Source: Escherichia coli (GTDB lineage: Bacteria > Pseudomonadota > Gammaproteobacteria > Enterobacterales > Enterobacteriaceae). Taken from it: a stretch of DNA of 64,000 nt. Location: assembly GCF_003334255.1 (NCBI RefSeq), contig NZ_QOWU01000021.1; one strand, 5' to 3'. The notes beneath the pieces are model-generated. The model was not told the origin of the DNA. It was given only the letters and a program-made list of their open reading frames with translations, and did not search any database. Every line of letters starts with the position of its first letter. The first letter of the stretch is position 1. Positions 3,076 through 3,307 of this stretch are shown here, one piece after another. The translations under genes were made by a program, and so were the position numbers.

Positions 3076-3307
3076 TAAAAAAATTCTCTTCATTAAATTT
3101 GGTGACATGTGTCACGCTTTTACCAGGCAATTGTCGATTGCTCTAAATAAATCCTCTAAACCAGCATATTCATCCAAGAATTACCTTTGCGTGATATTTC
3201 CTCAACATCGCGACGCAAACGTTCATATTGCCGCAATATTATTTTTTGATATGTTGAAAGGCGGATGCAAATCCGCACACAACATTTCAAAAGACAGGAT
3301 TGGGTAA

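Follow-up and report, generated by a model that had tools for sequence, protein, structure and literature searches.

The inverted repeat found upstream of serA in the window (the whole stretch of DNA analysed, 64,000 nucleotides) is very probably a binding site for the cAMP-CRP dimer, which regulates genes by carbon status, within the serA regulatory region. The site is a CRP box, the 16-mer GGTGACATGTGTCACG, located at positions 3101-3116 (centre 3108.5), which correspond to positions 3,058,602-3,058,617 of MG1655, and it contains the 14-mer at 3102-3115 that a sequence-only reading had taken for a possible regulator binding site for serA. This guess proved right: the box is a CRP box with published SELEX and footprint data and with conserved half-sites. 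The element is real, functional, deeply conserved and ordinary, and the CRP site of serA is already known: publications have described control of serA by CRP since 2002, the 16-mer was assigned to CRP in 2011, and a footprint of 2026 resolves it to the base pair.

A 1.1-kb query around the site shows 100% identity to many E. coli strains and matches all 5,426 complete genomes, and a stretch of 501 bp that includes the rpiA-serA spacer is the same as in E. coli K-12 MG1655, where it is found in reverse orientation. The regulated gene, serA, encodes the D-3-phosphoglycerate dehydrogenase and is on the plus strand at 3308-4540 (NCBIfam NF008759, 705 bits; RefSeq annotation), and the gene upstream of it, rpiA, is on the same strand at 2393-3052 (NCBIfam NF001924, 324 bits). 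The argP gene is on the minus strand at 1072-2031, and a LysR-type gene fragment is located between argP and rpiA, at 2107-2337. This last open reading frame, of 76 aa, shows a weak match (E about 1e-4) to the C-terminal part only of LysR-type regulators and looks like a gene remnant. Downstream of rpiA, the folded sequence shows a GC-rich stem-loop (3055-3077), which is followed by an A-run (TAAAAAAATT) without a T-run. Since an A-run rather than a T-run follows the stem-loop, no intrinsic terminator was called, and rpiA transcription may read through into serA. Other genera show hairpins of differing sequence at the position of this stem-loop, some of them with T-runs.

The 14-mer (GTGACATGTGTCAC, plus strand) starts 25 nt downstream of the rpiA stem-loop and covers the positions 193 to 206 nt before the serA ATG (3308), being centred 199.5 nt before it, in agreement with the sequence-only reading, which had placed it about 190 bp upstream of the serA start and just past the rpiA hairpin. 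The same reading had described it as a perfect palindrome, which it is not: the reverse complement, GTGACACATGTCAC, is mismatched at the two central positions, 7 and 8, and the repeat shows two 6-bp arms, GTGACA and TGTCAC, that flank a non-self-complementary TG, with 12 of the 14 positions symmetric. This 6+2+6 inverted-repeat shape is unremarkable in the window, where perfect 6-bp inverted repeats separated by 2 bp number 19 and about 15.6 would be expected. The sequence-only reading had parsed the 14-mer as 6+2+6 and had held that its half-sites resemble the CRP geometry without matching it, which is wrong: parsed as 4+6+4, the 14-mer is GTGA-CATGTG-TCAC, the exact CRP core. The GTGA-N6-TCAC pattern shows only three occurrences in the 64 kb. 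It is identity and conservation, not shape, that set the serA site above chance.

Compared with TGTGA-N6-TCACA, the 16-mer agrees at eight of the ten positions, and the differences are the two outermost bases only. A CRP weight matrix was made from 68 RegulonDB sites (Shimada 2011 Table S4) and refined to 44. With this matrix, the serA box scores 7.5 bits, which is near the median for the 68 training sites, the refined 44 having a higher median of 9.6 bits; the box is the best match in the rpiA-serA spacer and ranks 56th among the 63,985 positions of the window. The score is only moderate and counts against the CRP reading. In an alignment of 31 Enterobacterales sequences, the conserved site is extended to 3095-3119, with AAATT (3095-3099) upstream of the box and TT (3117-3118) downstream of it. 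This TT agrees with TCACAttt, the flank found in the 22-bp CRP consensus.

The same matrix recovers the SELEX CRP boxes of gcvT (10625), ygfJ/ygfK (45810 and 45780) and argP/scpA (997), with ranks 1, 3, 12 and 9, respectively. The CRP-like site TTTGATACCCATCACA at 10625-10640 is the Shimada SELEX box upstream of gcvT, and the CRP-like sites of the window at 45780-45825 (ygfJ/ygfK) and 997-1012 (argP/scpA) also coincide with Shimada SELEX boxes. Further strong CRP-like sites in the window are located at 18037-18050 (GGTGAGTTTTTTCACT) and 47478-47493 (TATGAATATTTTCACA).

The binding of CRP at serA is documented by several published data sets. In the Genomic SELEX of Shimada 2011 (PMC3105977), serA is among the known CRP targets recovered, and Table S3 contains a cAMP-dependent SELEX-chip peak, 'serA< rpiA >argP', whose CRP box, GGTGACATGTGTCACG, is placed at 3.05663 Mb of the older K-12 coordinates. 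Table 1 of a 2026 Footprint-seq preprint (PMC12871828) shows for serA the sequence ttGGTGAcatgtgTCACGctt at 3058610, with an estimated Kd of 4.8 nM, and the centre of the CRP box in MG1655, 3,058,609.5, coincides with this footprint centre. The preprint counts the serA box among its 'novel' sites. The idea that the site could be unassigned has to be abandoned, since the box is covered by both the SELEX assignment (PMC3105977) and the footprint (PMC12871828). In the enterotoxigenic strain ETEC H10407, Haycocks 2015 (PMC4287617) found a high-confidence CRP ChIP-seq peak at serA, with its motif given as 'n.d.', and MEME found no motif under this peak. The coordinates of that study were calibrated to NC_017633.1 through the galP and ygfI sites; in this region, the peak coordinates of its Table 1 are about 195 bp lower than those of the RefSeq record, and the serA peak, once calibrated, falls about 50 bp to the serA side of the box centre. 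The motif is plausibly missing because the box straddles the edge of the +/-50 bp search window. The peak-to-motif distance at serA is unusually large in comparison with the two calibrator sites. Purified cAMP-CRP binds the exact box in vitro at nanomolar affinity, and CRP is cross-linked nearby in vivo. The in-vivo direction of CRP regulation at serA is disputed: PMC8085971 credits CRP activation of serA to Yang 2002, Zheng 2004 and Shimada 2011, and in this transcriptome study serA behaves as CRP-repressed in vivo, not activated. The serA box is a handle for settling this dispute.

A serA CRP site was already present in RegulonDB: the entry quoted in Shimada 2011 Table S4 (PMC3105977) is an activator site at -80, AAAAATTCTCTTCATTAAATTT, a 22-mer that is found at 3079-3100 of the window and directly abuts the CRP box. 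This entry has the same regulator, target gene and promoter as the box and adjoins it, but the 22-mer shows no CRP half-site, scores 2.5 bits against 7.5 for the box and is centred 19 bp further upstream. Because a 22-mer without a half-site abuts the box, the entry, as quoted in 2011, was read as probably showing a 19-bp coordinate or curation offset. The quoted placement on 3079-3100 rather than on the box counts against the present assignment; the serA box should replace the neighbouring 22 bp in the database entry quoted in 2011.

Conservation was analysed in a comparison set of 80 serA loci, with one genome per species. Among the 80 loci fetched, rpiA-serA synteny is present in Enterobacterales, Vibrio, most Pasteurellaceae and other gammaproteobacterial loci, and the Shewanella loci of the set show no rpiA upstream of serA. 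The sequence-only reading had proposed conservation as a check of the site, and GTGA-N6-TCAC is kept at the same relative position in 37 of the 45 Enterobacterales loci. The genera with the box are Escherichia, Citrobacter, Enterobacter, Kluyvera, Pantoea, Erwinia, Yersinia, Serratia, Rahnella, Edwardsiella, Proteus, Providencia, Xenorhabdus and Budvicia, and many of the orthologous boxes are nearer to the CRP consensus than that of E. coli, up to the Proteus box, AGTGATATATATCACA, with 15.1 bits. Pectobacterium, Brenneria, Photorhabdus and Erwinia endophytica show a one-half-site relic at the same position, and in an insect-symbiont Pantoea the box has been lost without a half-site relic. Within the 80-locus set, the CRP box was not found at the serA loci of Vibrio, Pasteurellaceae and Shewanella.

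In the 24 distinct orthologous boxes, the four outer pairs alone are invariant and the spacer positions 6, 7, 9 and 11 vary; of the inner arm pairs, the fifth is Watson-Crick in 13 boxes and the sixth in 15, with mismatches or G-U wobbles in the others. Since the outer pairs are invariant and the inner pairs drift, what is conserved is the CRP half-sites and not a stem. Escherichia (E. coli and E. albertii) alone shows symmetry over the full 6-bp arms. In the 31-sequence alignment, nothing else in the upstream half of the spacer is strongly conserved, and the box equals the P1 core promoter in its conservation. The 51 bp around the site vary among E. coli genomes (only 1,982 reach 99% identity, and 2,448 have 90-95%), and in six sampled E. 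coli haplotypes and E. albertii all the differences are outside 3101-3116. Those among the E. coli haplotypes concentrate at 3117-3129, directly downstream of the box. The E. coli polymorphisms are C/T at 3117, A/T at 3125, G/A at 3126, C/A at 3128 and A/T at 3129; the K-12-type window has C3117, and the other sampled haplotypes have T.

Downstream of the box, the P1 core promoter of serA is located on the plus strand at 3228-3255, with a -35 TTGCCG (3228-3233) and an extended -10 TGaTATGTT (3247-3255). This pair ranks first among the promoter-like pairs of the spacer and is strongly conserved, with a predicted start at about 3262-3263. Yang and colleagues reportedly placed, in 2002, P1 45 nt and P2 136 nt before the serA ATG, and this P1 position fits the conserved P1. 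Between the box and P1, conservation is otherwise confined to the Lrp-like element CAGCATATTCATCCA, on the plus strand at 3162-3176, and no conserved P2 -10 is visible. Its conserved columns are A3163, A3166-T3170 and C3174, which fit the Lrp SELEX consensus YAGHAWATTWTDCTR, and Kluyvera has a near-perfect TAGCATTTTATGCTG at the same position. The most important Lrp site is probably this one at 3162-3176, and it overlaps P2. The literature documents that Lrp controls serA, and serA is listed as an Lrp target in RegulonDB.

Other motifs are found around the P1 -35. The sequence ACGCAAACGTTCATAT at 3213-3228, upstream of and overlapping the -35, is PurR-box-like, and Enterobacterales keep its GCAAnCGTT; a PurR site has been predicted upstream of rpiA-serA in H. 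influenzae (PMC3739930). The sequence ATATTGCCGCAATAT at 3225-3239 is the sole ATA-N9-TAT (Nac-type) match in the spacer and overlaps the P1 -35 and the promoter spacer, in line with published work on repression of serA by Nac; with its only match over P1, a Nac site at the box was rejected.

A relaxed hexamer scan shows a candidate P2 core on the plus strand at 3131-3160, with a -35 TTGTCG (3131-3136), an 18-bp spacer and a -10 TCTAAA (3155-3160), whose predicted start would be at about 3167-3170. The hexamers are weak and poorly conserved between genera, and a stricter promoter/terminator scan of 3000-3320 found nothing. The S1 Table of a ChIP-exo paper shows serA solely as a sigma-70 promoter, with a transcription-unit end rather than a start. 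Class I CRP sites are centred near -61.5, -71.5, -82.5 or -92.5 of the transcription start. The -80 given in RegulonDB for 3079-3100 would place the P2 start at 3169 or 3170 and, with it, the centre of the box (3108.5) at -60.5 or -61.5, the classic position for class I. With a start at 3172, which corresponds to the P2 reportedly placed in 2002, the box would be at -63.5 and out of the ideal helical phase. The conserved xATxTT (3165-3170) was also considered as the P2 -10 and was rejected: an Lrp site accounts better for the conserved A3163 and C3174 on its flanks, and such a -10 would also place CRP off-phase, at about -68.5. With the P2 start deduced in this way, the serA box is most likely a class-I-type CRP site near -61 of P2. 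Centred about 60.5-61.5 bp upstream of this start, bound CRP would bend the DNA and touch the alpha C-terminal domain of the RNA polymerase, and this contact would recruit the polymerase to P2, that is, class I activation as at lac. Lrp would bind between the CRP box and P1. As Lrp is reported in the literature to repress P2 and to activate P1, the CRP input would matter mainly at low Lrp occupancy, and it would couple serine synthesis to carbon status.

Readings in which the element is not a CRP site were weighed against the same data. That it acts through its structure, as a nucleic-acid hairpin or cruciform forming a second stem-loop in the rpiA terminator region, is highly improbable: a stem of 5 bp closed by a 4-nt loop is possible in the RNA (-6.4 kcal/mol), with GCUUUUA behind it and at a distance of 25 nt from the rpiA stem-loop, but this fold is insignificant (z = -1.66, with 14 of 200 shuffles folding at least as well) and the full 6-bp stem would need a 2-nt loop, which is sterically impossible. 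The 24 distinct boxes show no compensatory pattern, with the inner pairs Watson-Crick in 13/24 and 15/24, and the T-run is not conserved across the alignment. No terminator was called at the box in the strict scan of 3000-3320, and the Rfam scan gave no match beyond two at chance level. Practically no weight is left for a chance inverted repeat without function. The 6+2+6 shape, not enriched in the window (19 against about 15.6 expected), would agree with chance, but the core is present in 37 of 45 species at fixed spacing, the box is invariant within a polymorphic E. coli stretch, and binding data have been published (PMC3105977, PMC12871828). It is also very unlikely that the site belongs to another regulator with an overlapping site (the edge of an Lrp array, FNR or an uncharacterised factor) and that CRP binding is incidental. 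In favour of such a factor, T3108 and T3110 are found in 22 and 23 of the 24 boxes, above the typical requirement of a CRP site, the AAATT flank upstream of the box is also conserved, and the left half-site never begins with the consensus T, showing G or A in the 24 distinct boxes. Against it, the bases that never vary coincide with the GTGA and TCAC contacted by CRP, purified CRP alone footprints the box at about 5 nM (PMC12871828), and no other factor is known to us for the serA-box motif in E. coli.

A different question is what the CRP site does, and it is possible, though doubtful, that its role is architectural, acting on the Lrp complex and P1 as a co-regulator or as an anti-activator/repressor, and not as a class I site of P2. 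In its favour, the distance from the box centre to the P1 -10 is 141.5 bp in 19 sequences and 142.5 bp in 18, which amounts to 37 sequences, from 36 species and E. coli, of the 40 (39 Enterobacterales loci, by species, and the window, with the box at the conserved position), while the distance from the P1 -10 to the ATG ranges from 51 to 173 bp in the same 40 sequences. The box is about 153.5-154.5 bp upstream of the predicted P1 start across Enterobacterales. The sequence between the CRP box and P1 is mostly unconserved, with the Lrp-like 3162-3176 alone conserved and no conserved P2 -10. The Lrp footprint of Yang and colleagues (2002) is said to extend from -158 to -82 of P1, and in this position (about 3105-3181) it would reach the CRP box. 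In vivo, serA behaved as CRP-repressed in one study (PMC8085971). The box, the Lrp-like element and P1 are a length-constrained module conserved across Enterobacterales, and the proposal, in this form equally doubtful, is that the CRP box would be a fixed part of this module of ~160 bp (CRP box, Lrp site and P1), in which the CRP bend would modulate the Lrp-dependent activation of P1. If true, this could explain the reported in-vivo repression, and the activation of P2, a weak and poorly conserved promoter, would be secondary. Nevertheless, the fixed spacing may merely reflect dense packing with no room for indels, the published interpretation, as cited in PMC8085971, is CRP activation of P2, and the growth-rate-correlated repression in PMC8085971 could be indirect.

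The CRP site, with class I action at P2 as its most likely role, can be compared with known systems. FNR belongs to the same protein superfamily as CRP, and its site is TTGAT-N4-ATCAA. The serA box has in common with FNR sites the two-fold symmetry and the centre-to-centre geometry of the half-sites, but its discriminating base is G (GTGA), where FNR sites have T (TTGA), and none of the orthologues departs from this G. With an invariant G at the discriminating base, the serA box is CRP-type and not FNR-type, and an FNR site was rejected for its wrong discriminating base. The SELEX boxes of gcvT, ygfJ/ygfK and argP/scpA belong to the same motif family as the serA box; they carry at least one consensus TGTGA or TCACA half-site, whereas the serA box shows the 4-bp core alone on both sides. 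The class I prototype is lac P1, with CRP at -61.5. The serA box differs from it in the outermost bases of the half-sites, which are off consensus (GGTGA...TCACG against TGTGA...TCACA), in its target, a secondary promoter overlapped by an Lrp array and with a deduced start, and in the in-vivo direction of regulation, which at serA is disputed (PMC8085971). The serA box shares with lac P1 a palindromic CRP core with 6-bp spacing and a position that would be about -60.5 to -61.5 from the P2 start; its P2 core is weak and would need help in recruitment, as in class I promoters, and it is bound by purified cAMP-CRP at nanomolar affinity.
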